From positions 1,760,001 through 1,824,000 of the forward strand of contig OY771506.1 of NCBI GenBank assembly GCA_963674705.1: a stretch of DNA of 64,000 nucleotides. The letters run 5' to 3'. Source of the stretch: Phycisphaeraceae bacterium (lineage in GTDB: Bacteria > Planctomycetota > Phycisphaerae > Phycisphaerales > Phycisphaeraceae). Positions 39,760 through 61,664 of this stretch are shown piece after piece. Made by a program: the position numbers and the translations under genes. The notes below the pieces were generated by a model. It was not told the origin of the DNA. It did not search any database and saw only the letters and a list, made by a program, of their open reading frames with translations. Each line of letters starts with the position of its first letter. Within the stretch, counting starts at the first letter, position 1.

Positions 39760-40331
39760 TCAAGGGGTACACCAGCACAACAAACACAAGCCCGAACGCA
39801 CGCGAGCCAAGGCCGGCCCGCAACGTGAAAAGGGCGACAAACATCGGCAAATTCCGCACTTTTTTTATGAATTTGCCCCAGCACCAGCGGAGGTCATGGA
39901 ACGGACTCCAGCCTGTTCGACGTGACCGCATACCAGCCCGCCTGACCAAGGACGGATCGGCGGATAACTGGGCCAAACGCCAGAGCATCAGTGATCGGGT
40001 GCCTTGCAACCGTAATCGATCTGGCGTACGCGGACACGACCGACGGCACCTCTGCTGTTTGTTTGGATTGCACCACGCAAGTCGGCGCCTGTGAAAACGC
40101 GCCCGGTTTGCCCAACCGGTGCAGCATGACTTCCGCCTGTTGTCCGCCAACATTCAAGCAGGTTTTTCTATCCGCGGTCGAACCTTTCTCGACCTGATTG
40201 CGTAGTAAAGATAGGTAAAACAACGGTCGGGCTGAAAAGCCCGTGTACGGTCCCACAACGACTCAAGCACCGTATCCTTCTCCTCCTAAGCCACGCCCGC
40301 CGGTCACCCTCCCGCTGAGCGTGGTTTTTTT
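39760..40331 (+). ncRNA. Candidate large structured RNA downstream of mraZ
   Basis: No credible ORF; an almost continuous chain of stem-loops, including GAAA-capped ones, ending in an intrinsic terminator. Boundaries approximate. Confidence 0.6.
40288..40331 (+). terminator. Rho-independent terminator
   Basis: aagccacgc...gcgtggtt stem followed by a T run. Confidence 0.75.
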
Positions 40332-40481
40332 ACGTCCTGCTCACATGCAACCACATCTTTTTATAAAACAGCTACTTACAAGCACATTATTTGCCCATCC
40401 GTCGAATAAATGCTCGACAGCCCAGCAATCGCACGATAGTATTAAAGACGTGTTGAACTTTATTCCGTGAGGTGAACGACC

Positions 40482-41672
40482 ATGCGACTGACTCGGCTGA
40501 TGCTGCTGGCCTTGTTCATCGTTCTGGCGACGCCGGTCTTCTGGGAGGCGCAGCACTGCGCGTTCGGCTGAGGCGGTGGGTCGGGAGGATCGATCCGCCG
40601 TAGCGGTTCATCGATCCGTCTCACCTCTTCCGGTCGGAAGAGCTCCTCGAAACCAGAGTTGTCACAGGACCGGCGCGATAAGTGCGAACGTATGCTCGAC
40701 CTTGCCGAGCGCATGCTGTCCAATGACCGCCTGCCCGATGCGTATCGCTACGTCATGATCGCAGAGTCCATCGGCAAGTCCGACAGCAGTCTGCTCAGCA
40801 AAGTCAAGCAAACAGCGAACAACGTCAAGACCGCTGCCGAAAAGAAACTCGATGCGGCCGAACAATTCTACGAAAACGAGCAATACACCGAAGCGATCGA
40901 AGCCTACTCAAGCATCTCCGGCCTGCGCAAGCTCGATGTCGCGCGAGATGCGCGGATGAAACTTGCAGAGATACAGCGCAACCCCGCTGTCCGCGCAAGC
41001 ATGCGTGAGATCAGGGCCTGCCAACGGCTTGAAGATGTGCTCGAGATGATCGATATCACCAACATGGATATCGAAGTTGTCGACGACAGCGAACTGGAAA
41101 CCTGCAGCAGCGATGAAACGCTGCCAAGTCTTGCGATAGGGGACCAGGGCAACGACAGCCACGAATACGCGATCTTCGGCTCCGCACCCGCACAATTGGG
41201 CGACACGCAAACCGGCGCAAGCAACACGCAAAGCGGGTCATCGCACGACTACGCCGCATTCCCGTCGGCAGCCGCGTTCGCCGCGGCAAGCCCGCTGCCC
41301 GCTGAATCCGTCGAAGAAATGGAAGAGCTTGGCCTGTCTGAAGTAGAAGTTGCGCTGCTCTTGATTATTTGCGATCGCATCAAGTTCCTCGACAAACTCG
41401 AAGCCGTCGCCGACAACTACAGCGACACCAAGTCAGGCCAACGCGCACGCGACCTGGCGAACGACCTGCGTGCCTGCGATGCGTTTATGGACGGCCTGGA
41501 ATACCACCGCACCGAAGAACATGCCATGGAATACATCTCCATGGCCAAGCAATATGAACAGATCGGCAAGACCGACCTCGCGATCAAGTTCTACAAAGAT
41601 GCCATCCTCACCTGCCCGGATAGCGAATGGAGCAAAGCCGCCCAGGACGGGATCGATCAACTGAATAACTGA
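40482..41672 (+). CDS. Exported helical/TPR-like protein, predicted selenoprotein (UGA at 40569-40571, codon 30)
   Basis: GAGGTG SD and ATG at 40482, signal peptide MRLTRLMLLALFIVLATPVFWEAQHCAFG, TGA, then an open frame continuing into the track's 40659 ORF; strong hairpin after the UGA. Confidence 0.75.
40572..40626 (+). promoter_or_regulatory. SECIS-like hairpin
   Basis: GGATCGAT(40587-94)/ATCGATCC(40610-17) stem, CCGC/GCGG upper stem, CGTA loop 27 nt after the UGA. Confidence 0.65.
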
Positions 41673-41947
41673 TCAACAGTCACAAGCAATACCGGGTGTC
41701 GCACCTTGTTCGGTAGAACAAGGTGTGTTTTATATGAAGATGATTTAGCCACAGATGAACACAGATAAACACGGATGAAGGCGCCTGTATTACGTAGCTA
41801 TACAGTTATGTTGTGTGTTAATAGCACATTTGATTTCACTCCCTCTCCCCGCGGGAGAGGGCCGGGGTGAGGGCCGTATGTCATGTTGTGAACAATCGAG
41901 CAAATAACGCTTAATCAATCCAGCCCTCATCCTTGCCTTCTCCCGAG

Positions 41948-42934
41948 GCAACAAATTCGATCTACGCCCAAAAGTCTTGCCAAATAAACAGTTCGCCCTC
42001 ATGCTGGCGGTTTTGATCACGTTCCTTTGGCAAGGAGGCCAGCGATGGAAGGCGAACTGTGGGATCAACTGTATCACTGGGTGAAGACGGAGGCCAGCCG
42101 GTGGCCGCGCAGGCGGCGGGTGTGGTTCAGCGACGCGTGGATATTGCTCGTGTATCTCTGGTCGGTGCTGCACGATCGGCCTCAAGGCTGGGCCTGTCAA
42201 TCGCGGCACTGGCAGGCGTCGTTGTTGCGGGCCCGGCCGCTACCCAGCGTCTCGCGTTTGAGTGAACGGCTGCGTCAACCGTCACTGCGTCTGTTGTTTG
42301 AAGCGGTGATGCGTGAAGCACGCACGCATCTGCCGACGCGGTTGATCAAGTGCATCGACGCCAAGCCGCTGCCGGTCGGCGGTTACAGCAAAGACCGCGA
42401 CGCGAAGTGGGGCCAGGCCGCACGCACGAAAGCCCGAGGATACAAGCTGTTTGCGATCTACGAAGGCGCAGCGGTCGACAGCTGGCGGATCGGACCGATG
42501 AACGCATCGGAAACCTTGGTCGGCCGACAACTGCTACGCGAAGCGGCGCGTTACGGCGGCGGTTACCTGTTGGGCGACGGCTTGTATGACGCTAACCCTT
42601 TGCACGCTGTTTGTCATCAACACGAATTACAACTGGTTGCGCCCCGCAAACGACCGGGCACCGGGTTAGGTCATCAACCGCATGAGCCGCCGCGTCTGCG
42701 TTCGATCGAACTGCTGGAAGGTGGCGGTGTGTTTGGCCAAGCGTTGTTCGCTTGTCGCATCGGTATCGAACAACGCCTGGCCCAGGCCGGCAACCTCGGC
42801 TGCGGCTTAAGCCCGTTACCCAACTGGGTCCGCCGCCCCCACCGCGTCGCCGCTTGGATCGCAGCGAAGCTGCTGATCCTTACCGGCTGGAACTATAAGA
42901 AACAGACACTTACAGCGTAGATCGAATTTGTTGC
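41948..42934 (+). mobile_element. Complete insertion sequence, 987 bp, 20-bp perfect TIRs, 3-bp TSD (GAG)
   Basis: GCAACAAATTCGATCTACGC at 41948-41967 and its reverse complement at 42915-42934; GAG at 41945-41947 and 42935-42937. Confidence 0.93.
42045..42920 (+). CDS. DDE transposase (IS4/IS5-like superfamily)
   Basis: IDAKPL, DRDAKWG, GYKL, LLGDGLYD, RIGIEQ; AAGGAGG SD; stop codon lies inside the right TIR. Confidence 0.9.
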   Translation: MEGELWDQLYHWVKTEASRWPRRRRVWFSDAWILLVYLWSVLHDRPQGWACQSRHWQASLLRARPLPSVSRLSERLRQPSLRLLFEAVMREARTHLPTRLIKCIDAKPLPVGGYSKDRDAKWGQAARTKARGYKLFAIYEGAAVDSWRIGPMNASETLVGRQLLREAARYGGGYLLGDGLYDANPLHAVCHQHELQLVAPRKRPGTGLGHQPHEPPRLRSIELLEGGGVFGQALFACRIGIEQRLAQAGNLGCGLSPLPNWVRRPHRVAAWIAAKLLILTGWNYKKQTLTA

Positions 42935-43057: not shown

Positions 43058-43852
43058 TCAAAAAACCCGCTCCACCGCACCCGCCGCGATCAGCGCCGCA
43101 CCCAGCGCACCTGTGATCTGTGGCGTCTTGGGCATCACGATCTGCTTTTCAATCGCGTCGCTTAGCATCTTGTCCATCCTGTTGACGCGCGCTACGCCGC
43201 CGGTGAAAACGACGGGCTCTTTCAAGCGGTGTCCGCCCATGCCGGCGATGCGTCTTGAGATCGCGATCTGCACGCCTGCCGCGATATCACTTGGCTCATG
43301 ACCCGACGATAACAGGCCGATGATTTCCGTCTCCGCGAACACCGCACACATGCTCGATATCGTCGAGGGTTCTTTGCTTTGCGATGCGAGTTTGCCCAGC
43401 TCTTCAAGGTCTACATCCAAACGCTTGGCGACCATTTCAAGAAAGCATCCCGTCCCCGCGGCGCAGCGGTCGTTCATCGTAAAGTCTTCAACGCGCCCGC
43501 TTTCATCCAGGTGAATGACTTTCGAGTCCTGCCCGCCGATCTCGATGATCGATCTTGCATCGGGCAAAAGCATGCGTACGCCGCGCGCGTGGCAGGTGAT
43601 CTCGGTTACAGCTTTATCCGCAAAATCCAGCAGGTGGCGTGCGTATCCGGTCGCGACAACCGCTTCAATATCATCCAGAGACCTGTCGGCATCTTTGACC
43701 ACACGCTCGTACAACGCGCGCGACCGTTGTGCCTGGTTCGTCTGCGAATCATCAACGCCGCTTGCCAGAATCTCCGGCCCCTGGCCGTTCACCTCCAGCA
43801 ACACCACCTTGATGCTGCGCGAACCCGCATCGATACCCGCAAATAACATCAC
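43058..43852 (-). CDS. Acyl-CoA dehydratase activase (ASKHA ATPase, HgdC/BadF-like)
   Basis: GIDAGSRSIK, ATGYAR, EITCHARG, EIGGQDSK, NDRCAAGTG, SMCAVFAETE, FTGGVA. Confidence 0.93.
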   Translation of the reverse strand: MMLFAGIDAGSRSIKVVLLEVNGQGPEILASGVDDSQTNQAQRSRALYERVVKDADRSLDDIEAVVATGYARHLLDFADKAVTEITCHARGVRMLLPDARSIIEIGGQDSKVIHLDESGRVEDFTMNDRCAAGTGCFLEMVAKRLDVDLEELGKLASQSKEPSTISSMCAVFAETEIIGLLSSGHEPSDIAAGVQIAISRRIAGMGGHRLKEPVVFTGGVARVNRMDKMLSDAIEKQIVMPKTPQITGALGAALIAAGAVERVF

Positions 43853-45246
43853 TGCCTCCGCCCTCGCGCGGTTTCCATCAACGCCTCCAACCGCGTCCTC
43901 AGTGCCGGACGAACCGCATCAATCACAGTCGGCACCTCTACTTCAACAACAGGCAATCCCAAACCGTCACGCACCATCTTACCAATCACCTCGCCTTCAA
44001 ACGCACAGTGACTTGCGCCGGGGATTCGGCTGACGATCACCGCCTCGCAGCCGAACTTCTGAATCTCACGACAGATCATCCGCGCTCGATCGGCGGTCGG
44101 CCCAACCATCGGATCGCCCAGCGCCGTTCTCGCCAAGGCTTCAAAGGGTTCGACATCATCGGGGATCTGAGAAAGCGCGTGACAGAACATGTAATCCGTC
44201 CCGCTGATCCGCCCGCCGACTTCCTCAAGCAGGTTCATCACCTGAAGGTCCGCAACAGGATTCACCCAGAACACCCTGACCGCATCACCATCCAACACGC
44301 TGACATTCTGGTCAACGCGTCGCCTCGCCTCGGTTAGCAGTTCATCCAGCACCTCTACAGTCTGCTCGTAGTCGGAACAGTAATGTAGCGCAAGCATCTC
44401 CACTATGAGCATCTCAAGAGCGGGTAGCGGACACGGGTCGGAGGTATAAACCAGTTGCCGAAGCGAGCTGATCTTCTCGCGAACGGTGTTGGCTTTTCTT
44501 ATGCCCTCGGATAACTTGGCGCCGGTTAACGTTTGGCCCGTTGCTTTCTCGATTTCACCGGCAACACGCCTTAATTCATTACGCACCAAGTCGACTTGCG
44601 ATGATGCCGCGGTGAATCCGCTTGGTAATCGAACAGATGTTTCGTTAGCGCCCGCCAGTCGGCGCGGCGGCACTTCCCACCACAAGACCGGGTGTCCCAT
44701 CGCCTCGACGCGCTGCGCGATCGCGGAAAAATCATCGCACACCGCGCCGACGCTGCAGATAAGCAGGTCGGGTGTCGGGAAGTGGTTGCCCGTTTCAAAC
44801 GCGCCGACCATCGCACGCACCGGGCAGAACGATTCATCAATGCCCAGTTTATCCGCGACGCGCAGCAACCCCGCGCTGTGCTGCATCACGCACGGTATCC
44901 ACCACGCGCCGTCCGGATAGAACGTGGCCACGTTATCCAACGCGTACGCCATCACCGGCACCGTGCCCAGGTCCTTCATCGCGCCGATGATCGTCCGCCC
45001 GGCCTCGCGATCGGCCTGCAAACGATCTTCTTCACTCAATAGCAGATTCCACAATCGAAGCGCTGCCGGCGAATTGTCAAAACGCAACGACGCAAGACGC
45101 AGATCGCCATCCTCAAAGTGCCTGCCTAACGGGCCGTTGTAATCCGGGCCTGGCATCCCGGCTTTATATAAGCATTCGTAGCGTTCATCCCACTGCTGAA
45201 GCGTGATTGATTTAGGCTCATCCGAGATGTTGTGTTTCTCGTTCAT
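43849..45246 (-). CDS. 2-hydroxyacyl-CoA dehydratase family Fe-S protein
   Basis: FCPVRA, VCDDF, SHCAFE, LRTRLEALME; ATGA/TGATG coupling at both ends. Confidence 0.8.
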   Translation of the reverse strand: MNEKHNISDEPKSITLQQWDERYECLYKAGMPGPDYNGPLGRHFEDGDLRLASLRFDNSPAALRLWNLLLSEEDRLQADREAGRTIIGAMKDLGTVPVMAYALDNVATFYPDGAWWIPCVMQHSAGLLRVADKLGIDESFCPVRAMVGAFETGNHFPTPDLLICSVGAVCDDFSAIAQRVEAMGHPVLWWEVPPRRLAGANETSVRLPSGFTAASSQVDLVRNELRRVAGEIEKATGQTLTGAKLSEGIRKANTVREKISSLRQLVYTSDPCPLPALEMLIVEMLALHYCSDYEQTVEVLDELLTEARRRVDQNVSVLDGDAVRVFWVNPVADLQVMNLLEEVGGRISGTDYMFCHALSQIPDDVEPFEALARTALGDPMVGPTADRARMICREIQKFGCEAVIVSRIPGASHCAFEGEVIGKMVRDGLGLPVVEVEVPTVIDAVRPALRTRLEALMETARGRRQ

Positions 45247-46328
45247 CGCAACATCTCCAGGAATGCCGCGATGCGTCCCTCTGCGCGTTCGCATGTGGTG
45301 GCATCGACATCAAGGTCGATATCAATCACGGGGATCGGCGACAGTTGCTTGATGCGGTGCACCTCCGCGTGCCAGAGATCGCACCACAGACTTCTGCGCA
45401 GGATGATGCCTTTTACGTTGGTTTGTTTGATCGCATTAAGCAGCCAGTCGAAGAAGCGATCGTTCGGCCGTTGACGGATGTGCGGGATCTGCTGATAGGC
45501 GCTTGCCATCGCCTCGAACGGATCGTTATCGATCAGCGATTGGTCGATCGGTTCGGGCAGGCCGCGCTGGCCGTAGTCCGTTGCATCAAGCGCGACGTGG
45601 CCGCCGTGCTGCTTGATTGTGTCGAACAGCCACCACTGATAGCGAGGCAGCTCGGAACCAAGCAGGGCGATGGGGGTAGCAGATGAGTCCCGTGACTCCG
45701 TGGCGCGGGGTGCCACACTTTGACCCGAAGGGCAAAGTGTGTCTTCATGAGCACACTTTGCTGCTGCGCAGTCAAAGTGTGGCACCCGAGGCGCGCGATG
45801 CGCGTGTTCGGGTTTACCGTTGGTGTCACCATGCATTGCAGCTAAAGCCGTAGCGCGTTCCCGGCCGGTCATCGTTTGAAGTTGCATGCGGACGTCTTCT
45901 CGCTTGACTTCGTAAGCGATCAAGATGCTTTTCAAACGACCGGGCGTCGGTGATGTGCCGCCGATGGATTCGAGAAAGTTCCCGAGTCGATGCAGTTCAT
46001 CGCGATAACAACGCTGCGCTGATTCGCTCTGCCAGGTGGCCGGGATGTGCAGGAGCATTGTTGGTGTGTGATGCCTGCCGGGTGTATTCAATGCTTCACT
46101 GGAGCGTCGCAGTTGATCGCATATCGAAGCGACGATCACCGCTGCGACATTCTCGTGCATGGTTGCCTGTGTGATATACACCTGCGACCATGTGCAGCAC
46201 CCATCAACCGATATGGGTGCGCGGTTCTCATTGAATGGTTTGTGGTTGCACGGGCGGAACGGTTGAAAACCATGCGCCTCGATCCACTCGGGAGGGATGT
46301 ACGCCGAGTTGTAGCAGATTCGCTTCAT
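45243..46328 (-). CDS. 2-hydroxyacyl-CoA dehydratase family subunit carrying an in-frame repeat insertion
   Basis: YIPPEWIEAHG, SICDQLRR, WCDLW, GRIAAFLEML. Confidence 0.8.
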   Translation of the reverse strand: MKRICYNSAYIPPEWIEAHGFQPFRPCNHKPFNENRAPISVDGCCTWSQVYITQATMHENVAAVIVASICDQLRRSSEALNTPGRHHTPTMLLHIPATWQSESAQRCYRDELHRLGNFLESIGGTSPTPGRLKSILIAYEVKREDVRMQLQTMTGRERATALAAMHGDTNGKPEHAHRAPRVPHFDCAAAKCAHEDTLCPSGQSVAPRATESRDSSATPIALLGSELPRYQWWLFDTIKQHGGHVALDATDYGQRGLPEPIDQSLIDNDPFEAMASAYQQIPHIRQRPNDRFFDWLLNAIKQTNVKGIILRRSLWCDLWHAEVHRIKQLSPIPVIDIDLDVDATTCERAEGRIAAFLEMLR

Positions 46329-46349
46329 GGTTTGTCTGAAGTCGGGACG

Positions 46350-47591
46350 CTATGTTGGCTGTGCTGTCGGTCTTGTATTCACCATTTCGAACAATGCTTC
46401 AAGCCGTACCGCGATGCGCTGGCTGTCCGCCGGGGCGTAGTCTGTGACGATCTTCATGTAGGGCAAGCCGAAACGTTCTTCGCTCTGCTGCTTGAGTAGC
46501 GCCGCTTCGACTTCATAGGTCAGGCAGCCCTGCCAGATCAGTTCGACGATGCAGTCGGGTTTGTAGTCGTCAATCAACTTCTCGATCATGTCGAATCGCA
46601 ACGTGTTCGGCGTCATGACAGAACAGGGCAGGTGGAAGTACTTCTCAGCGAGCGCTTCCATCGGATCGGCGTCTTCACGCACATCATCAAGGATGGGTTT
46701 AAGCCCGGTGCAGTTTTCCATCGCAACGATGCGCCCACCGTTATCTTCGATCAGGTCGACGACGCGCTCCGCGCCGTGCGCGATGGGCACACCCGTGACG
46801 AGTACGCGCACTTCCCGGTTCTTGCTAGAAGTTTCGCCGCAGCATTCGGCGCTACCGAGCTTATCAAGGATGGTTTGATACTCGGCAAGGTCTTCGCATA
46901 TCCCGCTGATACTGCTCTTGAGATTAAGTAACTGTCGGCCGGTTAATGGCGGATTATCACGTTTCATCAATGCAGCAAGTTCGCGACGCAGGCGGCGCTC
47001 CTTGTTCATCAGCTCGATCGCGTCGCGGATCTTTTCATCCGTGATCTTGGTGTTGAACTGCTGTTCGAGTTTGGTTTTCAGTTTGTTCAGTTCGATGCGC
47101 CAAAGCGCAAGCGAATCGGGGTCGTCCGGCTTCTGTGGCAATTCAAGGATGTAGACCGGGCGAGATTCGGCCATCAGTTCGTACATCTTCTTCTTGCCGT
47201 CGCAGGTTGTTTCGGCAACGATGAGGTCCGCCATCTCGAGGAACGGATTGTTCTTCTGCATGTGATAGCCGAACGTGCTCTTGATAAGCGGGCACAACCC
47301 GGCGGGCAGAACGGACTCGGCGGCGAGCGCGGTTGTGTGTGATCCGCCACACAAACAGACGGGCACGGCTCCGGCGGCGAGGATCAATTCGCGTGGCGTG
47401 AACTCGCAGAGGATGCCGACGATCGGTTTACCATCGGCCTTGGCTCGCTCGGTGTAGGCCAAGCAGTTTTGGATCATATGGTCAAATCGGCAGGCGTTGG
47501 CGGCCGGGTTATCCACCACTGTTTGGGCGCACGCGTCTGTCGCGTTTGAGGTGCATGCGCACGGATTTGAACTCGGGCAGCAGTCGCTCAT
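46350..47591 (-). CDS. 2-hydroxyacyl-CoA dehydratase family protein, double-cubane-cluster reductase-like
   Basis: LCEFTPRELILAAGAVPVCLCG, LCPLIKS, ETTCDGKKKMYE, MENCTG, LPCSVMTPN, RLEALFEM; Cys-rich N-terminus. Confidence 0.85.
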   Translation of the reverse strand: MSDCCPSSNPCACTSNATDACAQTVVDNPAANACRFDHMIQNCLAYTERAKADGKPIVGILCEFTPRELILAAGAVPVCLCGGSHTTALAAESVLPAGLCPLIKSTFGYHMQKNNPFLEMADLIVAETTCDGKKKMYELMAESRPVYILELPQKPDDPDSLALWRIELNKLKTKLEQQFNTKITDEKIRDAIELMNKERRLRRELAALMKRDNPPLTGRQLLNLKSSISGICEDLAEYQTILDKLGSAECCGETSSKNREVRVLVTGVPIAHGAERVVDLIEDNGGRIVAMENCTGLKPILDDVREDADPMEALAEKYFHLPCSVMTPNTLRFDMIEKLIDDYKPDCIVELIWQGCLTYEVEAALLKQQSEERFGLPYMKIVTDYAPADSQRIAVRLEALFEMVNTRPTAQPT

Positions 47592-47593
47592 GA

Positions 47594-48403
47594 TCAGGCC
47601 TCCCGTTTGTGCGCGATGAAGCGCGCCTGGATGATCCGCTTCTCGTGCGCCAAGGTGCGCACAAACCCAAGCTCGCCGGCGATCTGCTGTAGCAGCGATT
47701 GATCGAAGCCGATGATCTTCAGCGCATCGTACGTCAGTTGTTTACTGACCATATCTATATAAAGATCGACATGCGGCGGGAACTGGCCGGTGTCGTCGGC
47801 TTCGAGGACGTCGCAGTTGTTGGCTTCAAGCAGATGCCGATAGTCATCGCATGTGGCGAAGGAGGGGAACTTCATGAAGGCGAGGAAACGCTGGGCCTGC
47901 TCATCAGACAAGCCGGCGGGGCCCTCGCACCAGTCGGTGAAGGCGATGGTGCCCCCGGGCTTGATAAGGCGAGTGGCTTCTTTTATAAGCGATGGTTTAT
48001 CATCAACATAGCACCACGCGTCCTCGCCCCAGACAAAGTCGAATTGCCCGTCGGGCAGGCCGGTATCGATCGCCTTGGCGAGTATGAACGTGGCCCGATC
48101 GGCGTAGCCCTCGTCGGCGCAGCGTTGCTTGCCGAGGTCGATCATGGCCGAGGTCATGTCGACGCCATGCATCCTGTCGACATCGCGGAATCGAAGCAGG
48201 AACCGCATGCCCGCGCCGCTGCAGCAGCAGAGGTCGACGCCGGTGGTTTGGGGCTTGATTTGGGCCTTTTCAGCGAGATGCATGGAGGAAGTCAGCCCGC
48301 CGATGTGGATCTGCTCGCCCATAAGCAGTTCCCAGAGCTTGCCTTCGGCCCCGCTGTAGACAGTTTGGATGTCGGATGATTGGATCGAGTCAAGTGAACG
48401 CAT
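47594..48403 (-). CDS. Class I SAM-dependent methyltransferase
   Basis: IHIGG, motif I VDLCCCSGAG, GVDMT, FDFVWGEDAWCY, IKPGGTIAFTDW. Confidence 0.9.
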   Translation of the reverse strand: MRSLDSIQSSDIQTVYSGAEGKLWELLMGEQIHIGGLTSSMHLAEKAQIKPQTTGVDLCCCSGAGMRFLLRFRDVDRMHGVDMTSAMIDLGKQRCADEGYADRATFILAKAIDTGLPDGQFDFVWGEDAWCYVDDKPSLIKEATRLIKPGGTIAFTDWCEGPAGLSDEQAQRFLAFMKFPSFATCDDYRHLLEANNCDVLEADDTGQFPPHVDLYIDMVSKQLTYDALKIIGFDQSLLQQIAGELGFVRTLAHEKRIIQARFIAHKREA

Positions 48404-48563: not shown

Positions 48564-49967
48564 ATGCAACGTTTGATATGGTCATGCCTTACGGTGACGG
48601 CGGCGATTGTTGTATCCGCTGTGCCATCACCTGGTGGAGGCTCGGTAAGCGCAGCGGACGAAGCGCAGGGCGCGACGTGGCTGAGCTACTACCACAGCCA
48701 GGATGCCCGCAAGCGCCTAGGTTACGCGATCGGCGCGCGTGGGATGGAGATGACCGAGCAAAAGCCGGACGGTTTGAAACTGCCGGCGGACATCGGCGAG
48801 GACGTTCGGTACGGCAAGTGGGACACGCCGATGGATGAAGCGGGCTTCCGGTATGTGGCGCTTGCGCGCAGCGCGTACGGGCAGCTTTGCGATCAACTTG
48901 TCATCGATTCCGATGGTGACGGGCAACTCGATGATGAAACGATCTACGGCACGTACAACCTGCGTGTGTACGGCAGCGCGCGAGGTCGTGTGTACTTCGA
49001 TCCGGTTGCGATCGAACTTCAAACCGAAGACGGCCCGACGCTGTATCACTTGAACGTGAATGTGTATTGCGGCGGTCCCGGTTCGTACAACGTGACATAC
49101 AATGCGGGCGGCTGGTACCAGGGCACGGTGATGCTCAACGGCGAGCCGTTCGATTGCCAGCTATTGGACAACAACGCCAACGGCACGTTCAACGATACGT
49201 GCGAAGGTGATGAAGGATATGGCGACACCGATCGCGTTCGTTTCGGCGCTGCGAATACCGAAGCGATGATGACCGGGCATTACGTGAAGAACGCGGACAA
49301 ATTTTACGCGTTCAGTGCGGCGAAAGATGGCGCGTATGTTACGGTGAAAGATGCGGACGGTTTAGCGGTCGGCAAGATCATTGTGCCGGAGGACTTTGCG
49401 TTCGTGAAAGTGTTCGGACCGGAGGGTTCGTTCAACATCAAGGCCGACAGCGATCAGGAAGTGCCTTGCGGCGACTATCATCTTGTCGCCTGGCAGCGCG
49501 AGGTGAAAGATGTGGCCGGCAAAGACTGGCGCTTCAACGGCGGCGGTTTCCCGGAACATGAAGCGATTGAAGTTGGGACGGATGAGCCGGTCACGCTGGC
49601 GCTGAGCGATCCGTGGAACGCAAAGATTACGGATTATGAACGGCCCGGCCGACACACGTTCAACCAACAGATCACCGGACGCTACGGCGAACAGATCAGT
49701 GCGTCTTATTCCAACGGCGGCCGACCCCCGGCGCCGAGGATGCACATCGTCAGCGAGGATCAGCAGTACGAGCGGACGTTCAAGTTCGAGTATGGGTGAG
49801 GCGGGACCTGTTCGCTCTCATGGCGAGAGCCTTACAACCAGGTCGGCCCCTACACCGCAACCCTTCTGCTGGACTATCCGGTCCAGATCGAATGCGAAGA
49901 TCTGATCATCGGCAAAGCTGCTGAGGATGCTTCCGAAGCAGACAATGCTGTCACGTTGAATGAATAA
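48564..49967 (+). CDS. Exported protein, predicted selenoprotein (UGA at 49797-49799; FEYG-U-GGTC)
   Basis: Signal peptide; the frame continues 55 codons past the TGA to TAA at 49965-49967; motif and hairpin shared with the 56751 gene. Confidence 0.85.
49805..49844 (+). promoter_or_regulatory. SECIS-like hairpin
   Basis: GCTCTC(49814-19)-ATGGC-GAGAGC(49825-30) on a lower stem GACCTG/CAGGTC; loop starts 20 nt after the UGA. Confidence 0.8.
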
Positions 49968-50047
49968 CAGCGTGGCGGCTGTGCTGTGGTGTGTGCGGTG
50001 TGTTTGAACTTTGTCTGAATCTATCTATTCAAACGAAAGGGGGCGTT

Positions 50048-52450
50048 ATGCGGATGCCTCATCTGATACTGTTCGGATTGGTTTTGTTGTTGAGCGCGGG
50101 GATCGCGCGTGCGGCTGAGTCGGAAGCTGTTACGTTCAAGGGGCGGGTAGTCGACGTCGATGGTAAAGCGATCGGGGGCGCGGATGTTGTCGTGCTTGGT
50201 GCTGATATTGATTTGTTTGTTGGGCCGCAGACCAAGCTTATTGCGCAGACGAAGGCTGATGATGAAGGTGCGTTTAATGTGGCTTCTGAGTCGGTCGGTA
50301 ACTGCGAGCGGATTTTAGTCGCGGCACGACACGACGGGCTTGCGCTTGGTTCGTGGAACGGCGCGTTAAGTGAATTGCCCGAAGCGCTGACGTTGAAACT
50401 TGGCAGCGCGCAGACGATCGCTGGCACGGTCGTGGATGAATCGGAGCAGCCTGTCGCCGGGGCGACGATCAAGGCGATGCTGCGTTGGAACGATGGTGAT
50501 CACGTCAATTCGTTGATCGCACATGAAGCGATCCCCGAGCTGATTGTGAAGACGGATGATGCGGGGCGGTTTGAGTTTCAAGCGGTGCCTGAGGGGGCGG
50601 GCGCGATCATGGCTGTACAGGCCAAAGGTTATGCGACGCAGTTGAAGCCCGAGTCTACTTTGCAAGGCATACCCGCGGGGACGGCAGATACAAAGATCGT
50701 CATGCTAAAAGGCTCGACGATCAACGGCCGGGTAACAGCCAACGTTGAGGACGCGACGCTAAAAGGCCTTACAGTGGTTGGACAGTTCAACAGGTATCCT
50801 TACCTGACAGACGAACGTGCGGTGACGGATGCGGACGGCAAGTTCACGTTGACGGACCTGCCTGCCGGTGAAGTGAAGCTGATCGTTGTGCCCGGGAAGG
50901 TTGATCTGTCACAGGAACTAAGCGAAGCCGACCTGCCGTTTGCGTGTGTCGATGAGGTGAAGGTGGCCGGGCCTGGCAGCGAGCAGGATGTGACGCTGGC
51001 GCTTCAGCGCATGGCGATACTCGAAACGACCGTGATGAATCGTATGTCACAGGAGCCGGTTGCGGATGCGACGTTCCACTATGAGCATCGGCAGGACAAG
51101 CTGAAAAGCACGGTGCAGACGGATGAAAAAGGGAACGGTCGGGCGTTGGTGTTGCCCGGGCCTTACCTGGTTTATGCGGAGCATCCGGACTTTACGCGCA
51201 ACGGCGTTCGTCGGATCGTGACACTCGGTGAAGGTCAGACGATGCAGGTGCCGGTCGGCCTGGTGCAGGCGCAGATGTTGACCGGCACGGTGAAGGATGC
51301 GCAGGGCAACCCGATCAAGGACGCGAAGGTGGAGGCTATGCCTTCAAGTCAATATCCATCGGTCAAGACTGATGCGGATGGCAGGTTCAAGATGCAGTGG
51401 GAGCCCGCGAACTGGGGGCAGGACATCACATCACTACTGATCGTGCGTGATATGAAGAATGATCGGGCGATCGCGGTCCCGATCGACGATACGTTCAAAT
51501 CGTTCGACCTGACGCTACAAAAGGGTGCGTCGTTTACCGGGCGCGTTCTGACGGAAGAGGGCGAACCTTTAGAAAACGCGACTGTTTCAATTACCCTCTT
51601 CGGCGGTAATTGGGGCAGCAGTCTTTCCGGAGAGAACACGGTCCGTTCGGATGCGGACGGGCGATTCAAGGTTGTCGGCCTGCCGGCACAGGCTGGTTAT
51701 CACCTCTCGGCTACCGCGGATGGGTACGGCCAATTCACCTGGCGGTTCGACAACGTCGAGTCGACCGAGAATGTCCTGGATGATGCGAAGCTGCTCAAGG
51801 CCGATCAGACACTGACGGGCACGGTCGTGGATTCCAATGGCAAACCCGTCGCCAAGGCGCGCGTGCAGGTGTATGGAGACGACCAAGTCAACAAGAACGT
51901 TGAAGCCGATGACGAAGGTAAGTTCAAGATCGAAGGTTTGTGCAAGGGGTATGCGAACCTGTTCGTGCAGTCTCAGGGCGCGCCGCACATGTACGGCCAG
52001 TACTATGCGAAGGTGGATCAGAAAGAAGTGAAGATCGTGATTTCCGAGCAGGGGATGAACCAGGAGCCTGCGGCGGAAGTGATACCCGAATCGATTGAGG
52101 GACAGCAGGCGCCTGACTTGAGCACGTTGGGTCTTGAAACGGCGCCGGAAGGCAAGCCGGTGTTGGTGCTTTTTATAGATGCGAAGCAGAGATCCTCACG
52201 GCATGCGTTGTCTGATCTGCTCAAGAAGATGGGTGGCAGCAATAGCGCGCATGTCGTCGTTGTGCAGGTCGGTGAGGCGGATGATGCGTTGATCAAGGCG
52301 CAGAACATCAAGCTGCCGGTGGCGCGCGTGACGGAAGATGTGGAAGATGTATGTGTGAAGTGGGGCGTTCCGGCGGTGCCGTGGTACGTGCTGGCCGATC
52401 CGAAGGGGAACGTCGTGCACAGCGGCGCAACACTTTCAGCGGCGCAGTAA
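50048..52450 (+). CDS. Exported protein with repeated carboxypeptidase-regulatory-like beta domains and a C-terminal thioredoxin-like domain lacking CxxC
   Basis: Repeated GxVVDxxGxPVAGA...TDxxGRF units; C-terminal GKPVLVLFIDAKQRSS...WGVPAVPWYVLADPKGNV. Confidence 0.8.
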   Translation: MRMPHLILFGLVLLLSAGIARAAESEAVTFKGRVVDVDGKAIGGADVVVLGADIDLFVGPQTKLIAQTKADDEGAFNVASESVGNCERILVAARHDGLALGSWNGALSELPEALTLKLGSAQTIAGTVVDESEQPVAGATIKAMLRWNDGDHVNSLIAHEAIPELIVKTDDAGRFEFQAVPEGAGAIMAVQAKGYATQLKPESTLQGIPAGTADTKIVMLKGSTINGRVTANVEDATLKGLTVVGQFNRYPYLTDERAVTDADGKFTLTDLPAGEVKLIVVPGKVDLSQELSEADLPFACVDEVKVAGPGSEQDVTLALQRMAILETTVMNRMSQEPVADATFHYEHRQDKLKSTVQTDEKGNGRALVLPGPYLVYAEHPDFTRNGVRRIVTLGEGQTMQVPVGLVQAQMLTGTVKDAQGNPIKDAKVEAMPSSQYPSVKTDADGRFKMQWEPANWGQDITSLLIVRDMKNDRAIAVPIDDTFKSFDLTLQKGASFTGRVLTEEGEPLENATVSITLFGGNWGSSLSGENTVRSDADGRFKVVGLPAQAGYHLSATADGYGQFTWRFDNVESTENVLDDAKLLKADQTLTGTVVDSNGKPVAKARVQVYGDDQVNKNVEADDEGKFKIEGLCKGYANLFVQSQGAPHMYGQYYAKVDQKEVKIVISEQGMNQEPAAEVIPESIEGQQAPDLSTLGLETAPEGKPVLVLFIDAKQRSSRHALSDLLKKMGGSNSAHVVVVQVGEADDALIKAQNIKLPVARVTEDVEDVCVKWGVPAVPWYVLADPKGNVVHSGATLSAAQ

Positions 52451-53188: not shown

Positions 53189-54604
53189 GTGACATCAGCG
53201 ATACATCGTGATCTGCTTCGACAGTTGCCTTCGGTTAATGATCTGCTGGCTGATGCGCGGACGGTCGCGTGGCTGGCGGAGCATCCAAGGGAGCTGGTGA
53301 CGGACTGCCTGCGTACGGCGGTGGATACGCTGCGCGAGCAGATCCTTTCCGACCAGGCTGGGCGGTGCGGGGTTCAGCATGTCAATATGGAATCGGTGCT
53401 CGACCGTGCGGAGGCCGAAGTCGCGAAGCGCACTTCGCCGAACATGCACGCGGCGATCAACGCGACGGGGATCATCCTGCATACGGGGTTAGGCAGAGCG
53501 GTGTTGCCAGCCCGCGCGGTCGAAGCGATCGGGCAGGAGTTGAAAGGTTACGTCACGCTTGCGGTCGACCGCGAGACGGGCGAGCGGATCAACCGCGACC
53601 AGATGGTCGAATCACTGCTATGCGAACTGACCGGCGCGGAGGCGGCGACGGTCGTGAACAACAACGCGGCGGGGACGATGCTCGTGCTTGCGGCGCTTGG
53701 CGCGGGGCGTGAAGTGATCGTTTCGCGTGGTGAGCTTATTGAGATCGGCGGCGCGTTCCGCCTGCCTGACGTGATGGCGCAGAGCCAGTCGAAGATGGTG
53801 GAGGTCGGCACGACAAACCGCACGCACCTGCGCGATTACGAAAACGCGATGACGGAAGACACGTCGCTTTTGTTTAGAGCGCATCCGAGTAATTACCGGA
53901 TCGTCGGATTTACGAGCGCGGTACCGATCGAATCGCTGGCGGAGCTGGCGCATGGGCGCGGGCTTGCGGTGGTGGATGATCTTGGCGCGGGGGCGTTGGT
54001 GGGGTTGGAGAAGTTTGGATTGCCGCACGAGCCGACGATGCGTGAATCGATCGAAGCCGGTGCGGATATCGTGCTGGCGAGTACGGATAAACTGATCGGT
54101 GCGGGGCAGGGGGGCGTGATCGTCGGCAAGAAAGAACTGATAAAGAAGATTAGAAAACATCCTCTAGCGCGTGCGATGCGTGTAGATAAGACCTGTTTGA
54201 TGGCGCTTGAGCGTACGCTGCCGCTATTCAGGGATATCAAGCTATTGAAGCGCGAGCATCCGACGTACATGATGCTGTCGTCGCCGATGGAAACATTGAC
54301 CGAGCGTGCGGAAGCGCTGGCGGCCGCGATCCGAAAGGTGTTGGCGACTGCTGAGGTCGAGGTTTGCGAGGATGTGGGATATCTGGGGTCGGGTTCGCTG
54401 CCGAGCGAGGCGCTACCTTCGATGGCGGTGCGTTTGCGCGTGGCTTCGATGAAGGTTGCGCATCTAGCCAAGGCGCTTCGGCTTGATGATGCGTGTGTGT
54501 TTACGCGTGTGACGGATCAGACAGTGGTGATGGATACACGCACGATCACGGATGAACAGGTGGAATTGATCGCCGCCGCGGTGAAGCGGTGCGTGGGATC
54601 GTGA
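53189..54604 (+). CDS. selA: L-seryl-tRNA(Sec) selenium transferase
   Basis: INATGIILHTGLGRA, VVNNNAAG, SRGELIEIGGAFRLPDVM, EVGTTNRTH, HPSNY, DLGAG, STDKLIG. Confidence 0.96.
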   Translation: MTSAIHRDLLRQLPSVNDLLADARTVAWLAEHPRELVTDCLRTAVDTLREQILSDQAGRCGVQHVNMESVLDRAEAEVAKRTSPNMHAAINATGIILHTGLGRAVLPARAVEAIGQELKGYVTLAVDRETGERINRDQMVESLLCELTGAEAATVVNNNAAGTMLVLAALGAGREVIVSRGELIEIGGAFRLPDVMAQSQSKMVEVGTTNRTHLRDYENAMTEDTSLLFRAHPSNYRIVGFTSAVPIESLAELAHGRGLAVVDDLGAGALVGLEKFGLPHEPTMRESIEAGADIVLASTDKLIGAGQGGVIVGKKELIKKIRKHPLARAMRVDKTCLMALERTLPLFRDIKLLKREHPTYMMLSSPMETLTERAEALAAAIRKVLATAEVEVCEDVGYLGSGSLPSEALPSMAVRLRVASMKVAHLAKALRLDDACVFTRVTDQTVVMDTRTITDEQVELIAAAVKRCVGS

Positions 54605-54763: not shown

Positions 54764-56707
54764 ATGCCTGATAAACATAAGAACATCATGCTTGGTACGG
54801 CCGGTCACGTCGATCACGGCAAGACGTCGCTGGTGAAGCTGCTGACCGGTTGTGATACGGATCGATTAGCTGAAGAAAAACGGCGCGGCTTGACGATCGA
54901 GCTCGGCTTTGCGCCATGCAAGATGACGGACGATCGGATCGTCGGCATCGTGGATGTGCCGGGGCATGTTTCTTTTATCCGGCACATGGTCGCGGGGGCG
55001 CATGGGGTTGATGTGATCATTCTTGTGGTTGCTGCGGACGACGGTGTGATGCCTCAGACGCGCGAGCATCTGGATGTGATGACGTTGATGGGGGCGCGTC
55101 GTGGGTTGGTTGCGCTGACGAAGATCGATCTTGTTGATGAAGAAATGCGCGAGCTTGCGATAGAGGATGTACGCGGCGCGTTGGCGGAGACGTTTTTAGC
55201 TGATGCGCCGATCTGCCCGGTATCGAACGTGACGGGCGAAGGGTTTGAAGGATTTTTCAAGGCACTGGATGAGCAGGTCGCGGCGTGCGAGCCGCGCGTT
55301 TCGTTTGGGCCTTACCGGCAGTGGGTGGAGCGGTCGTTTATCGCGCATGGTTTTGGCGTGGTCGCGTCGGGGATACCGACGACGGGGGAATTGAAGGTTG
55401 GGGAGTATGTGCGTGTTTTGCCGGGCGATCTGAAGCTTCGCGTACGGGGGCTGCAGGTGTATGGCGATGATGCGCAGGTCGCGCGGTTGGGCGAATGCGC
55501 TGCGGTGAACCTGGCGGATGTGGACCTGGAACGTTTGCCGCGCGGCGTGGTGTTGACGACCTCGACGACGCTTGGCACGGTATCGCAGTGCGCGGCACGT
55601 TTGCGGACGCTTGGGCGCTCGAAGCGAGCGCTTCGTGACGGGACAGAGGTGCATCTGCATGTAGGGACGGAGTATGTGCAAGCGAAAGTGATTGCGCTGG
55701 AAGGGGGTCCGATCGAACCGAGCGATGAAGCGCTGGTGCAGTTGCGATTTGAACGGGAGTTACCGGTTTCGCCGGGCGATCGGTTTGTTGTAAGGACGCA
55801 TGTTGAAGAAGCCGGCGGCTTGACGACGATCGGCGGGGGCGTGGTGCTGGACACGACGGATAAACGTATGCGGCGGAAGCGCGTGGAGGTATTGGAGCCT
55901 TTAAAGAAGCGTGAGGCGGCGCTGGGTGATCCGGCGGCATGGTGTTTGGCGCTGCTTGAGGAGGTGGAAGAGTCGATGACGGTGGAAGCGCTAGTGGAGC
56001 GCGCGGTGTTGCTTGAATGCGAGGTTGAGCCGGCGCTTGATGCATTGAAGCAGCGAGAGGATGTGGTGGCGCTGGATGATCGGCGCGTGTTGGCGAAGCG
56101 CGTGATCGAACGCGCGGGCGAGAAGATTGTTGAGCGGTTGCGTGAAGAGCATGCGGCGAATCCTGATAAGTTCGGCTTGACGACAGCGATATTGGTTAAC
56201 GCGCTTGAAATGGATGGGGATGTTGCTGCGAATGCGGTGGCGGGGTTGTGCGATAGCGGCACCATGACGCGGCAGGGGGAGTTGCTTGCGCTGGCGGAGC
56301 ATCGGCCTGCGATCAGCGCGGCGGATCAGAAGTTGCTTGATGCGATAGTTGATCTATATAAGAAGGATCACTTCGCGGCGAAGCGGCCGAGCGAGGCGGC
56401 GGAGGCGCTGGGCGAGCCGATGAAGCGCGTGCAGCCGATGGTGAAGATGCTGATCGAGCGTGGGGATCTGGTGAAGCTGACAGACCAGATCGTGATGCAT
56501 CGTGACGCGGTCACGGCGGCGGTGGGCGTGGTGCGGGATTTGTTTGAGAAGTCAGAGCGCTTTTCTACGGCCGAATTCCGCGATGCGCTGGGCGCAAGCC
56601 GTAAGTATGTAATCCCCTTGCTTGACTATTTTGACCACGAACGTCTGACGATCCGCCACGGCAGCGAGCGAAAGCCCGGGGCAAAGTTGCGGGAAGAGGT
56701 CGGCTGA
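54764..56707 (+). CDS. selB: Selenocysteine-specific elongation factor
   Basis: GTAGHVDHGKT, EEKRRGLTIELGFA, DVPGH, MPQTREH, TKID; C-terminal winged helix FRDALGASRKYVIPLLDYFD. Confidence 0.97.
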   Translation: MPDKHKNIMLGTAGHVDHGKTSLVKLLTGCDTDRLAEEKRRGLTIELGFAPCKMTDDRIVGIVDVPGHVSFIRHMVAGAHGVDVIILVVAADDGVMPQTREHLDVMTLMGARRGLVALTKIDLVDEEMRELAIEDVRGALAETFLADAPICPVSNVTGEGFEGFFKALDEQVAACEPRVSFGPYRQWVERSFIAHGFGVVASGIPTTGELKVGEYVRVLPGDLKLRVRGLQVYGDDAQVARLGECAAVNLADVDLERLPRGVVLTTSTTLGTVSQCAARLRTLGRSKRALRDGTEVHLHVGTEYVQAKVIALEGGPIEPSDEALVQLRFERELPVSPGDRFVVRTHVEEAGGLTTIGGGVVLDTTDKRMRRKRVEVLEPLKKREAALGDPAAWCLALLEEVEESMTVEALVERAVLLECEVEPALDALKQREDVVALDDRRVLAKRVIERAGEKIVERLREEHAANPDKFGLTTAILVNALEMDGDVAANAVAGLCDSGTMTRQGELLALAEHRPAISAADQKLLDAIVDLYKKDHFAAKRPSEAAEALGEPMKRVQPMVKMLIERGDLVKLTDQIVMHRDAVTAAVGVVRDLFEKSERFSTAEFRDALGASRKYVIPLLDYFDHERLTIRHGSERKPGAKLREEVG

Positions 56708-56750: not shown

Positions 56751-58073
56751 ATGGTGGACAGTTGCCGCGGCGGTTTTGCCGTGATTCCGAAAGGGTTTTT
56801 TGTGATTGTATTACGCCGATTAGCCGCTGCGATGTTGCTGGCCGGCGGTGTAATTGTGTGTGCGGATGTGCAGGCGGAAATCAGTTTCCGTGCTGCTGAC
56901 CCGAGGGCGACGTTATGCCACGCGCCGCGTGTGGTGGATACGTTCACAGCATCATCGGCGGGGAGGCTGAGCAGTTCGGCGGTGGTGGGGACATTGAATA
57001 CACATTACGGGCCTATCCATGTCGCGATCGATCCGCGCGGCACGAGTGAGCCTTACAACGTGACGTTTGATTTCACCGGCACGGGCAGGTTTGAAGACCC
57101 GACCGAGGTGCGCGTCATCGCACGCAAGCATGGCGACTACTTCTGGGGTGAGTTGACGCCGACGGTCGTGGAACTTTCACGTGGCGGGCATAAGATCAGC
57201 GTCGGCATCATGGGGATGGTGTATCGCTCAAGCGACAGCCAATCGGTCGATGTGATGTTCGGCGCCATGATGGAAACGTCGTGTGCGTTCGGCTCGCAGA
57301 CGCTTGATGTCGACATTATGGACGGCGATCAGAACTTCTACTTTGGTGATAAGTCAGCAAAGCGCGGGTTCAAGGTCGAGGTCGGCGACACACTGGTTGT
57401 GCATAAGGACAATCAACGGTACATGGTTTTGGTCGGCCAGCCGGTGCAGATCGATGGTGCGTGGTACGACATCGTCGTGCATGAAGATTATTCACTTGAA
57501 GCGAAGCCTGTGAATATCACGGTGGGCAAGTTACAGATCGATAAGGGCGACTGGTCCGCGATCTTTGTCGGCAGGCGGTATGTCTGCGGCGCAAAGGGTG
57601 GGACGGAGGCGGTCACGCTGCCGGCTGATTCTTACACCATCGTGCGCTACGATGAACGCAGCGGCACCGCGATGGTGTCGTGTCAGAGTGATAACGGCCC
57701 GAGCGCGTCGGTGCAGGCTGGACAGACGGCGCAGGTGAGTATCGGCACGCCGATCGCGGGCATCCCGGTCATGTTCCAGCAGGGCGATACCGTCAGCATC
57801 CGCGCGAAGATGATCGATTCAAGCGGGATGAACGTGACGGAACTTCGGCTTGAAAGTGGATTGCGTCCGGAGCCGCCTGTCGTGGCGGTGTTTGATAGTA
57901 GCGGTCACGTGCTGCATCAGGCCGCACTGGAATATGGGTGAGGTGGCATATGTTCGCACTCATGGCGGGTGCCATCCAATGCAGGCCGGGGCGGATCGCT
58001 GACAGCGGTCATGAAGTACGAGGCGAAGCCGTTCACGGTCAAGCTCGGACGGACGGACTTCAACGTGCGCTGA
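56751..58073 (+). CDS. Exported protein, predicted selenoprotein (UGA at 57939-57941; LEYG-U-GGIC)
   Basis: Lies between selB and selD; signal-peptide-like N-terminus (true start may be ~56802); frame continues 43 codons past the TGA; motif and hairpin shared with the 48564 gene. Confidence 0.85.
57956..57972 (+). promoter_or_regulatory. SECIS-like hairpin (apical part)
   Basis: GCACTC(57956-61)-ATGGC-GGGTGC(57967-72); same loop and same 20-nt distance from the UGA as at 49814. Confidence 0.8.
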
Positions 58074-60253: not shown

Positions 60254-61114
60254 TTATTTGCCGGGCACGGGTTGGGGTGGGTTTGCTTCTGGGGTCTTCG
60301 GGGTTTTGCCGGCGACAGTCAGTGTGATGGCGGGGCAGTTGGTGCATTCCATGCAGCGGATGCAGGATGCGTTGTTGATGGATTGATCGAGTTTGACATC
60401 GTACTTGCATCGGCTGCGGCAGAGGTTGCATTCGGTGCACTTGGGGGCGTTGTAGTGCAGGTAGAGGAGGCTGAATCGGTTGAAGATCGCGAAGATGCCG
60501 CCGAGCGGGCAGAAGATTCGGCACCACGGGCGGTAGGTGAAGAAAGCTAAGAAGAGGACGACGCCGGTGACGATGAGTTTGATCGTGTTGGGGATGAACA
60601 GTTGTCCGCGATAGATTGATTGGCCAAGCGCGGCTTCGAGCGCGCCGGCGGGGCAGACGTTACAGAAGAAAAGCGGGTGTTCGTCGCCGAAGAAGAAGGG
60701 GATGAGCAGGACGAGTCCGATGAGCGTGACGAATCGGCCGTAGCCTAGCCAGCTTGGGATGGAGTATTTGGGTGTGGGGATTTTCCCGAGCAGGTCCTGG
60801 AAGAAGCCGAAGGGGCATGCCCAACCGCAGACGGCTGTGCCGAAGATCCCGCCGACGGTGATCAGCACGCCGAGGATCATCAGCGGCCACATGTGCATCG
60901 CGGCGAACTGCGACATGAGCCCAATCGGGCAAGCGACTGTTGCGAGCGGGCATGCGTAGCAGTGGAAGACGCAGCCGGGCACGGAATGCCAACGCAGTAG
61001 AAGTGGGTCGAGCCAGACAGCGAGAAAAGCGGTCTGCACCCAGGGGCGTAGTTTGCCGAGGTTCAGTCGGCGACGGGGGATGTTTGGTTTGGATGATTCG
61101 GCCATGGCACGCAT
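60254..61114 (-). CDS. Membrane 4Fe-4S binding protein (NapH/MauN/CcoG-like)
   Basis: CYACP, CGWACPFG, FCNVCPAG, WCRIFCPLG, CTECNLCRSRC, CIRCMECTNCP; TM helices. Confidence 0.9.
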   Translation of the reverse strand: MRAMAESSKPNIPRRRLNLGKLRPWVQTAFLAVWLDPLLLRWHSVPGCVFHCYACPLATVACPIGLMSQFAAMHMWPLMILGVLITVGGIFGTAVCGWACPFGFFQDLLGKIPTPKYSIPSWLGYGRFVTLIGLVLLIPFFFGDEHPLFFCNVCPAGALEAALGQSIYRGQLFIPNTIKLIVTGVVLFLAFFTYRPWCRIFCPLGGIFAIFNRFSLLYLHYNAPKCTECNLCRSRCKYDVKLDQSINNASCIRCMECTNCPAITLTVAGKTPKTPEANPPQPVPGK

Positions 61115-61136
61115 GACCCGGCGGGGGTCACTTCAC

Positions 61137-61511: not shown

Positions 61512-61571
61512 CGGTAAAACGCCTTTCAATGCACGGCTGCAACGTGTCAATACACGCGCGGCCTGCGGGAA

Positions 61572-61664
61572 CGGAGGTGCATGGGAATCGAACCCACCCG
61601 GGACCGTTAAAGCCCCACACTGGTTTTGAAGACCAGGAGCGTCACCAGACCGCCGATCACCTCC
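61572..61664 (-). tRNA. selC: tRNA-Sec (anticodon UCA)
   Basis: GGAGGTGA TC GGCGGTCTGGTGACGCTC CTGGT CTTCAAA ACCAG, long variable arm, GTGGG TTCGATT CCCAT GCACCTCC G; CCA not encoded. Confidence 0.96.

Follow-up and report, generated by a model that had tools for sequence, protein, structure and literature searches.

Selenocysteine (Sec) recoding of the E. coli fdhF type is based upon an in-frame UGA, a hairpin located directly downstream and selABCD genes in the genome. The locus described here has all three, and differs in that Sec is predicted at the junction of a signal peptide, on a disordered arm rather than in a folded active site. In the SAO system, as presented in bioRxiv 10.1101/2022.07.06.499078, the selenoproteins SaoB, SaoX and SaoC bear signal peptides and are often encoded beside NF040772 double-cubane enzymes and an activase; however they have no sequence match to the present protein, their Sec is C-terminal or part of a binding pocket, Cys versions are common, and SaoX and SaoC are ordinary Cys lipoproteins. 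Only NF040772 is shared with SAO, and the NCBIfam matches of the scanned island proteins included no Sao family model. Sec recoding in exported proteins is already known from these examples. The variant seen here appears to be new, because Sec would lie at the signal-peptide junction and no Cys homologs occur in our sample. All known selenoproteins are said to have homologs with Cys at the Sec position (PMC12013277). Sec-less members of the same Phycisphaerae family are homologous over the whole helical body (E values to 1e-91) and exported, but have neither UGA nor Cys at the Sec position and mostly lie in housekeeping neighbourhoods (pantoate ligase, lgt, aldolase).

The gene occupies positions 40482–41672 on the forward strand of the window, the whole stretch of 64,000 nt that was analysed. 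Starting from the ATG at 40482 the frame opens MRLTRLMLLALFIVLATPVFWEAQHCAFG, reaches a TGA at codon 30 (40569–40571, +), and then continues through 366 open codons to the TGA at 41670–41672. Read through the UGA this gives a 396-aa preprotein, with frame and UGA common to 11 other genomes. A Shine-Dalgarno-like GAGGTG (40469–40474, +) is located 7 nt 5′ of the ATG. Among seven in-frame starts as far as 40755 this ATG has the best match (5/7); the remaining six, TTG 40659 among them, match at 3/7. The initial annotation had preferred this ATG to the TTG, noted as having no Shine-Dalgarno sequence, and had described the signal peptide, the TGA at codon 30 and the open frame beyond; each of these points was borne out. 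Public gene calls cut the gene in two, giving proteins of 29 aa (P0036) and 326 aa (P0116).

The segment 40482–40568 (+) resembles a signal peptide, with a basic n-region, a hydrophobic h-region and a polar c-region ending in C-A-F-G, of which the Cys is residue 26 (40557–40559, +). It can be aligned with those of 9 other genera. After the UGA comes a Gly/Ser/Arg-rich arm (40572–40664, +) that is predicted to be disordered, with pLDDT < 50 at residues 24–43. A sigma-70-like promoter match (TCGACA-17-TAGTAT; 40414–40442, +) has a match count at chance level, and both hexamers are retained in the relative G173. A terminator-like hairpin of 12 bp with a T-rich tail (41700–41727, +) lies 3′ of the gene.

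From its conservation and the evidence below, the UGA at codon 30 is very likely decoded as Sec. Six-frame searches of genomes found an in-frame UGA at codons 27–32 in 12 genomes from 10 genera and three families of one class. Within the bacterium's own family the full-length gene is present in 7 of 144 genomes, all seven having the in-frame TGA at the same place, and five further UGA forms come from two families in other orders of the class. Body identity is mostly 18–45%, and even where identity to the window protein drops to 18–25% the position of the codon is held. Neither TAA nor TAG replaces it in any of the 12. The contexts are CAFG-U-GG in the window genome (G000) and G173, CAGA-U-GG in G143 and G237, CGGA-U-GR in G164, CAAG-U-GG in G125, TTAG-U-RP in G277, QGRA-U-GG in G335, CGAG-U-GG in G328, CEGG-U-GS in G472, CEAG-U-GP in G634 and CEAG-U-GG in G659.

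The gene ends in TAA in G173 in place of its terminal TGA, so that UGA serves these genomes as an ordinary stop. A contig assembled in a second study also spans the site (assembled sequence, not raw reads) and retains the UGA; it has 121 differences in 40300–41678, with none listed in 40480–40651. The initial annotation had called for sequencing error to be excluded and homologs to be aligned at codon 30: the UGA of 12 genomes and the second contig dispose of the former, and the alignment gave TGA in 12 genomes and a clear Cys in none of 89 Sec-less rows. A nonsense mutation, an error and genetic code 4 were all rejected, because the same codon is kept across genomes and UGA is an ordinary stop. 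The phylum was sampled with 400 genomes, among which no full-length member was found outside the class; word-index protein searches returned a single match, a relative with 90% identity.

The hairpin following the UGA is of the SECIS type (40583–40622, +), with an apical loop CGUA (40599–40602) 27 nt after the UGA and stems of 8 bp (GGATCGAT/ATCGATCC) and 4 bp (CCGC/GCGG), just as had been noted from the sequence. The consensus bacterial model in section 5 of PMC13188914 has a G in the first two loop positions and lies 16–37 nt downstream of the UGA; the window hairpin agrees with it (G second in the loop, 27 nt, −20.2 kcal/mol), as do those of 7 of the 12 members, while 5 depart from it. A 62-nt fold has a free energy of −30.9 kcal/mol (z = −3.2), reached in 1 of 200 dinucleotide shuffles; against resampling of synonymous codons the same hairpin gives z = −0.9 (p = 0.19). 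A stricter test requires five contiguous pairs at the loop, a feature of 5 of 11 Sec sites; in-frame windows elsewhere in these genes show it in 73 of 1015 cases. The window hairpin has only four. The loop is GUGGC in G328, G472 and G659, resembling the AUGGC/GUGGC loops of the neighbouring Ig-like selenoproteins discussed below. In both close pairs (G000/G173 and G143/G237) the 20 codons after the UGA contain no synonymous change, compared with 0.17–0.18 per codon elsewhere (p = 0.026 and 0.018).

The whole of the Sec machinery, selA, selB, selC and selD, is encoded within the 64-kb window. selA (53189–54604, +; TIGR00474, E = 2e-155) is followed by an open reading frame for a selB-like elongation factor (54764–56707, +), as in related islands, then by selD (58168–59748, +), with a C-terminal CMD/AhpD-like domain, and by tRNA-Sec(UCA) on the reverse strand (61572–61664; RF01852, 71.5 bits). 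The encoded SelD has an active-site motif with Cys, an N-terminal extension rich in Cys and a Cys-Cys end before a TGA. A second tRNA-Sec called by ARAGORN at 708446–708537 of the genome, outside the window, has no RF01852 match and is probably false.

The gene follows selA in its distribution. Of its 12 carriers 11 have selA, and the twelfth (G277, 87% complete) gave no match for selA, selB or selD, although a tRNA-Sec(UCA) was found 97 bp from a contig end. In the bacterium's own family selA occurs in 16 of 144 genomes but in 6 of the 7 carriers (Fisher p = 5e-6, a value that is overstated since related genomes do not count as independent). Of the 10 other genomes of the genus, G173 is the sole one with selA and likewise the sole one with the full gene. 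In 6 of the 12 members no more than 13 kb separate the gene from selA; in G125 it is 0.2 kb before selA, directly 5′ of selA-selB, in G472 it directly follows tRNA-Sec, and in G173 it is the first of a co-directional run reaching selA. No link to the sel island is visible in G335, G328, G634, G659 and G277. The order at the G125 locus (L096, 8820–10470, −) is an Rrf2 regulator, the Sec gene, selA, selB, two Ig-like selenoproteins, selD and tRNA-Sec, an arrangement that is possibly a selenium- or Fe-S-responsive operon. Taken together, conservation, the SECIS-type hairpin and the sel genes give good support to the initial proposal of Sec recoding with selenium-dependent translation of an exported protein.

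Cut sites for signal peptidase I follow the −3,−1 rule, with small residues at both positions. A cut just before Sec has G or A at −1 in all 12 members, 9 of which also have a small residue at −3. The three relatives with Glu at −3 do not allow it, and fit C-E-[AG]↓G-U (the arrow marking the cut) with Sec at +2. Cutting one residue earlier, so that Sec is at +2, has G or A at −1 in 9 of the 12, with Cys or Thr at −3, but this fails in the window protein, G173 and G335. Near the UGA of the window protein the rule is obeyed only by A-F-G↓U, which parallels the A-x-G↓Q of Sec-less homologs. By this rule Sec is probably at position +1 or +2 of the mature protein. It had been suggested that Sec would be residue +1; that placement fits the window protein and 9 of the 12 members, with the three Glu relatives fitting +2 instead.

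A Cys four residues upstream of the UGA, giving the CxxxU of the initial annotation, is indeed present here, and in 10 of the 12 members altogether (Thr in G277, Gln in G335). Of 46 Sec-less homologs a single one has Cys at −3, and in 223 signal-like proteins of the bacterium's own genome 1.5% of residues 20–30 are Cys. The difference suggests that Cys and Sec are under joint selection, and that the Cys may not be lost. Yet with Sec at either +1 or +2 it leaves with the signal peptide. Conservation of the Cys would thus be accounted for in one of two ways: either CxxxU is retained by cutting upstream or not at all, or the Cys acts transiently during export. The first of these would require a cut further upstream (E-A↓Q-H-C here) or an uncleaved anchor, leaving a Cys-Sec redox or metal pair at the membrane. 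The enrichment of the Cys points that way, Q-H-C is kept in five genomes, and CxxU-type motifs are common among selenoproteins in Table 1 of PMC13188914. We nevertheless regard retention as unlikely: the upstream site of the window protein has Trp at −3, two members have another residue in place of the Cys, and Sec-less P0007 keeps P-C-P-G-G-T while G444 has P-C-K-A-Q, so that Cys can be a plain c-region residue. The motif does not seem to be a portable tag on other proteins. A search of the DNA of 48 genomes for C-x-x-x-U-G gave about 190 matches, and in the 50 loci that were read a signal peptide was present only at two known genes of the family; in the bacterium's own genome 10 candidates with a signal peptide and a UGA passed the filter, of which only this gene looks real.

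In the main rival to our reading of its function, Sec would be inserted so that the exported TPR-like scaffold is made only when selenium is available, the residue itself being chemically minor, with polarity extending the control to downstream sel genes. All 12 members have the UGA close to the 5′ end, the search turned up no Cys version, the Sec-less homologs having Gln, Thr or Ala there, and the position of the gene between the Rrf2 regulator and selA-selB in G125, and at the head of the run to selA in G173, would suit such control. In the window, however, a terminator-like hairpin of its own and then a convergent cluster follow the gene, and polarity therefore cannot reach selA. Moreover a pure switch needs neither placement at a cleavage site, nor a G/A-U-G context, nor a Cys at −4, and we think it improbable.

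The more speculative suggestion of the initial annotation, that Sec takes the place of the +1 Cys of a lipoprotein, is not supported by the sequences. A lipobox has the form [LVI][ASTVI][GAS]C and directly follows the h-region. None of the 12 members has L, V or I three residues before Sec, where A, G, T or E is found in all 12, and a polar or charged c-region of 6–10 residues separates the h-region from Sec. Lgt would have to place diacylglycerol on Sec, with signal peptidase II then cutting before it. A selenol is a strong nucleophile, Sec directly follows the signal peptide and is always preceded by G or A; yet without a lipobox, and with no Cys-lipoprotein homolog in 89 Sec-less rows, this is very improbable. 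Least probable of all is that the UGA is a true stop (in a pseudogene, or between a peptide and a downstream cytoplasmic ORF), an error or a Trp codon of another code, for although public gene calls give 29 + 326 residues and one carrier lacks detected selA, selB and selD, the same codon stands at the same place at about 20% identity, never as TAA or TAG, the downstream starts have no Shine-Dalgarno sequence, the terminal TGA has become TAA in G173, where UGA is an ordinary stop, and the gene goes with selA.

The wider family was collected with phmmer against 1.84 billion representatives, giving 114 matches. The tree was built from 91 database proteins and 46 genome loci, leaving out 23 matches that were copies of Sec genes, fusions to other domains or fragments. 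Seven UGA genes and 17 database proteins form one clade (SH-like support 98). By a crude hydrophobicity rule, with contig ends included, a signal-like N-terminus is missing from all 17 of these database proteins compared with 19 of 74 elsewhere. The 17 have the appearance that a gene caller would give to a gene split by UGA, and would then carry the codon upstream. Contig DNA was searched for their genes, giving no relative in metagenome contigs and only a same-genus record in genome contigs.

The Sec-less homologs with a signal peptide have, in 46 of 55 cases, A or G and then Gln where the signal region ends, and the residue at the Sec position is mostly Gln, sometimes Thr or Ala. The Sec-less rows number 89, comprising 55 signal-bearing database proteins and 34 genome loci with some duplicates. 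In this limited sample no clear Cys occupies the Sec position; V-G-C-G-Q in a G328 paralog is the one ambiguous Cys. A single origin of Sec was rejected by an AU test against one clade for the Sec forms (p = 0.005), made with 10 Sec and 24 Sec-less rows after leaving out 12 near-copies or long branches. Gain or loss of Sec has therefore occurred repeatedly, or else the N-terminus has been exchanged. Both G328 and G659 have a Sec and a Sec-less copy in tandem.

An AlphaFold2 model calculated from a 43-row alignment has a mean pLDDT of 80.5. It predicts two helical TPR-like modules: the first (residues 62–190; 40665–41051, +) is also indicated by structure matches and the ESM Atlas, and the second (residues 275–395; 41304–41666, +) follows an acidic low-confidence linker and has TPR matches below cut-off. 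Sec lies inside the predicted disordered stretch of residues 24–43. TPR_14 scores 21.8 bits against a gathering cut-off of 23.5, so the body is best described as having a TPR-like predicted fold and not as a TPR repeat protein by the Pfam cut-off. The ESM Atlas gives a score of 0.93 to a Planctomycetota TPR_14 cluster. Foldseek found no match in the PDB at E ≤ 0.001, and the best VIA-align matches (Z about 10) are short generic helical pieces. Envelope adaptors of TPR-like fold (BamD/YfiO, CpoB/YbgF, NlpI and FimV TPR3) are weak HMM matches below cut-off, again short and generic, and establish neither orthology nor an N-terminal Sec. Within the body only Ala, Leu, Pro and Tyr occur as invariant residues, and no catalytic site is therefore evident there. 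Around Sec only Gly is conserved, apart from the Cys at U-4; together with the lack of Cys homologs this seems unlike a catalytic site. The Sec form in G277 (L097, 9287–11017, +) continues into a fused, C-terminal thioredoxin-like domain containing WCVPC and has no Cys at U-4, and several distant homolog matches are TlpA-TPR fusions.

Decoding of the UGA as Sec, with export and cleavage beside it, would proceed as follows. SelB bound to the hairpin would very probably deliver Sec at the UGA, only the 29-residue signal peptide being made when selenium is lacking. Signal peptidase I would then, quite likely, cut the window protein at A-F-G↓U and several relatives at C-x-[AG]↓[GA]-U, the Cys being lost with the signal peptide. 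We put at even chances that the free amino-selenol at the tip of a flexible basic arm would serve as a mobile nucleophile, a reductant or a soft-metal ligand in the periplasm. Ni-superoxide dismutase has a His-Cys hook in which an N-terminal Cys binds the metal. By analogy only, the Sec protein would likewise have a chalcogen at position 1–2 freed by proteolysis, with chelation involving the free amine possible; there is no homology to the hook, and no second conserved ligand is present. The TPR-like body would bind a partner protein. The Sec protein would act with the exported Ig-like selenoproteins, whose motif is U-G-G-x-C, and with a NapH-like membrane ferredoxin of the same island. As a whole, an exported TPR-like scaffold whose disordered arm bears Sec at +1 or +2, for which we infer a function from these features, is rather more plausible than not. 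Extended to a class-wide family, the proposal becomes tentative: cleavage would leave a swinging arm with a free Sec at its N-terminus (U or G-U), for which there is no Cys counterpart, Sec having been gained or lost several times in replacement of an N-terminal Gln; a transient bond between Cys(−4) and Sec might protect the selenol while the protein is exported, or gate cleavage; and together with the Ig-like family this would constitute an extracytoplasmic selenium chemistry taking up most of the Sec machinery of the genome.

The initial annotation had pointed to a G-UGA-GG context at two other candidates, and both are real. The genes at 48564–49964 (+; TGA 49797) and 56751–58070 (+; TGA 57939) encode Ig-like selenoproteins with the motif Y/F-G-U-G-G-x-C-x-x-x-W-x-V-P near the C-terminus. 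All 15 related loci found have the UGA, with SECIS loops of AUGGC/GUGGC. This exported, uncatalogued family has no NCBIfam match, and is predicted to fold as a multi-domain Ig-like β-sandwich (pLDDT 86.6). It lies in or near the sel operon of many Phycisphaerae, including some where the TPR-like Sec gene is absent. Two home-made scans of the selenoproteome each recovered one of the three island sites; they are insensitive, and we therefore make no claim that the island holds all selenoproteins. No stop was found within 17 AhpC/TSA matches or two weak molybdopterin matches, and there was no Rdx match.

Several further genes share the island. An exported protein of transthyretin-like (CarboxypepD_reg) repeats is encoded at 49991–52450 (+); its C-terminal part looks by eye redoxin-like without CxxC, and the gene directly precedes selA in G173, G143, G237 and G164. 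At 60254–61550 (−), directly downstream of tRNA-Sec, are genes for two membrane proteins, one NapH-like with 4Fe-4S and the other small, and the NapH-like gene is near selD or tRNA-Sec in G143, G164, G335, G451, G349 and G315. The cluster at 43058–48403 (−) encodes a double-cubane reductase (NF040772 above cut-off) with two further dehydratase-like subunits, an activase and a methyltransferase, and is present in single copy in the genome. It adjoins sel genes in G143, G164, G634 and G451, and is absent from this spot in G173. The double-cubane family has been tied to selenium (bioRxiv 10.1101/2022.07.06.499078). In G143, G237 and G164 the Sec gene and this cluster adjoin, and in the window they are separated by a DDE transposase gene (42027–42920, +). 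With its Ig-like, transthyretin-repeat, NapH-like and double-cubane genes, the island supports an extracytoplasmic redox setting.

NCBIfam 20.0 selenoprotein models gave no match at E ≤ 0.01 to the window protein or to eight other Sec forms, and the 119-family table of PMC13188914 (Table 1) has no TPR-like entry. In the literature searched we found no account of this family, nor any bacterial case of Sec placed N-terminally behind a signal peptide. A UGA directly after a signal peptide creates a blind spot in annotation, making exported proteins look like cytoplasmic fragments; in the UGA clade all the database copies seen are without their N-terminus. If cleavage exposes Sec, this would be a natural N-terminal selenol outside the cytoplasm. 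The gene allows the action of signal peptidase or Lgt at Sec to be tested directly, and bears on the use of Sec in Phycisphaerae where a Sec formate dehydrogenase was not found.

Loci L146–L154 of G164, with eight identical pattern matches, belong to an intergenic multicopy repeat whose reading as C-E-A-G-U-G is fortuitous. Repeats of this type, which can mislead motif searches, also occur at about 41840–41875 of the window. Outside the window, positions 622407–634804 of the genome contain 30 tRNA genes arrayed on one strand.
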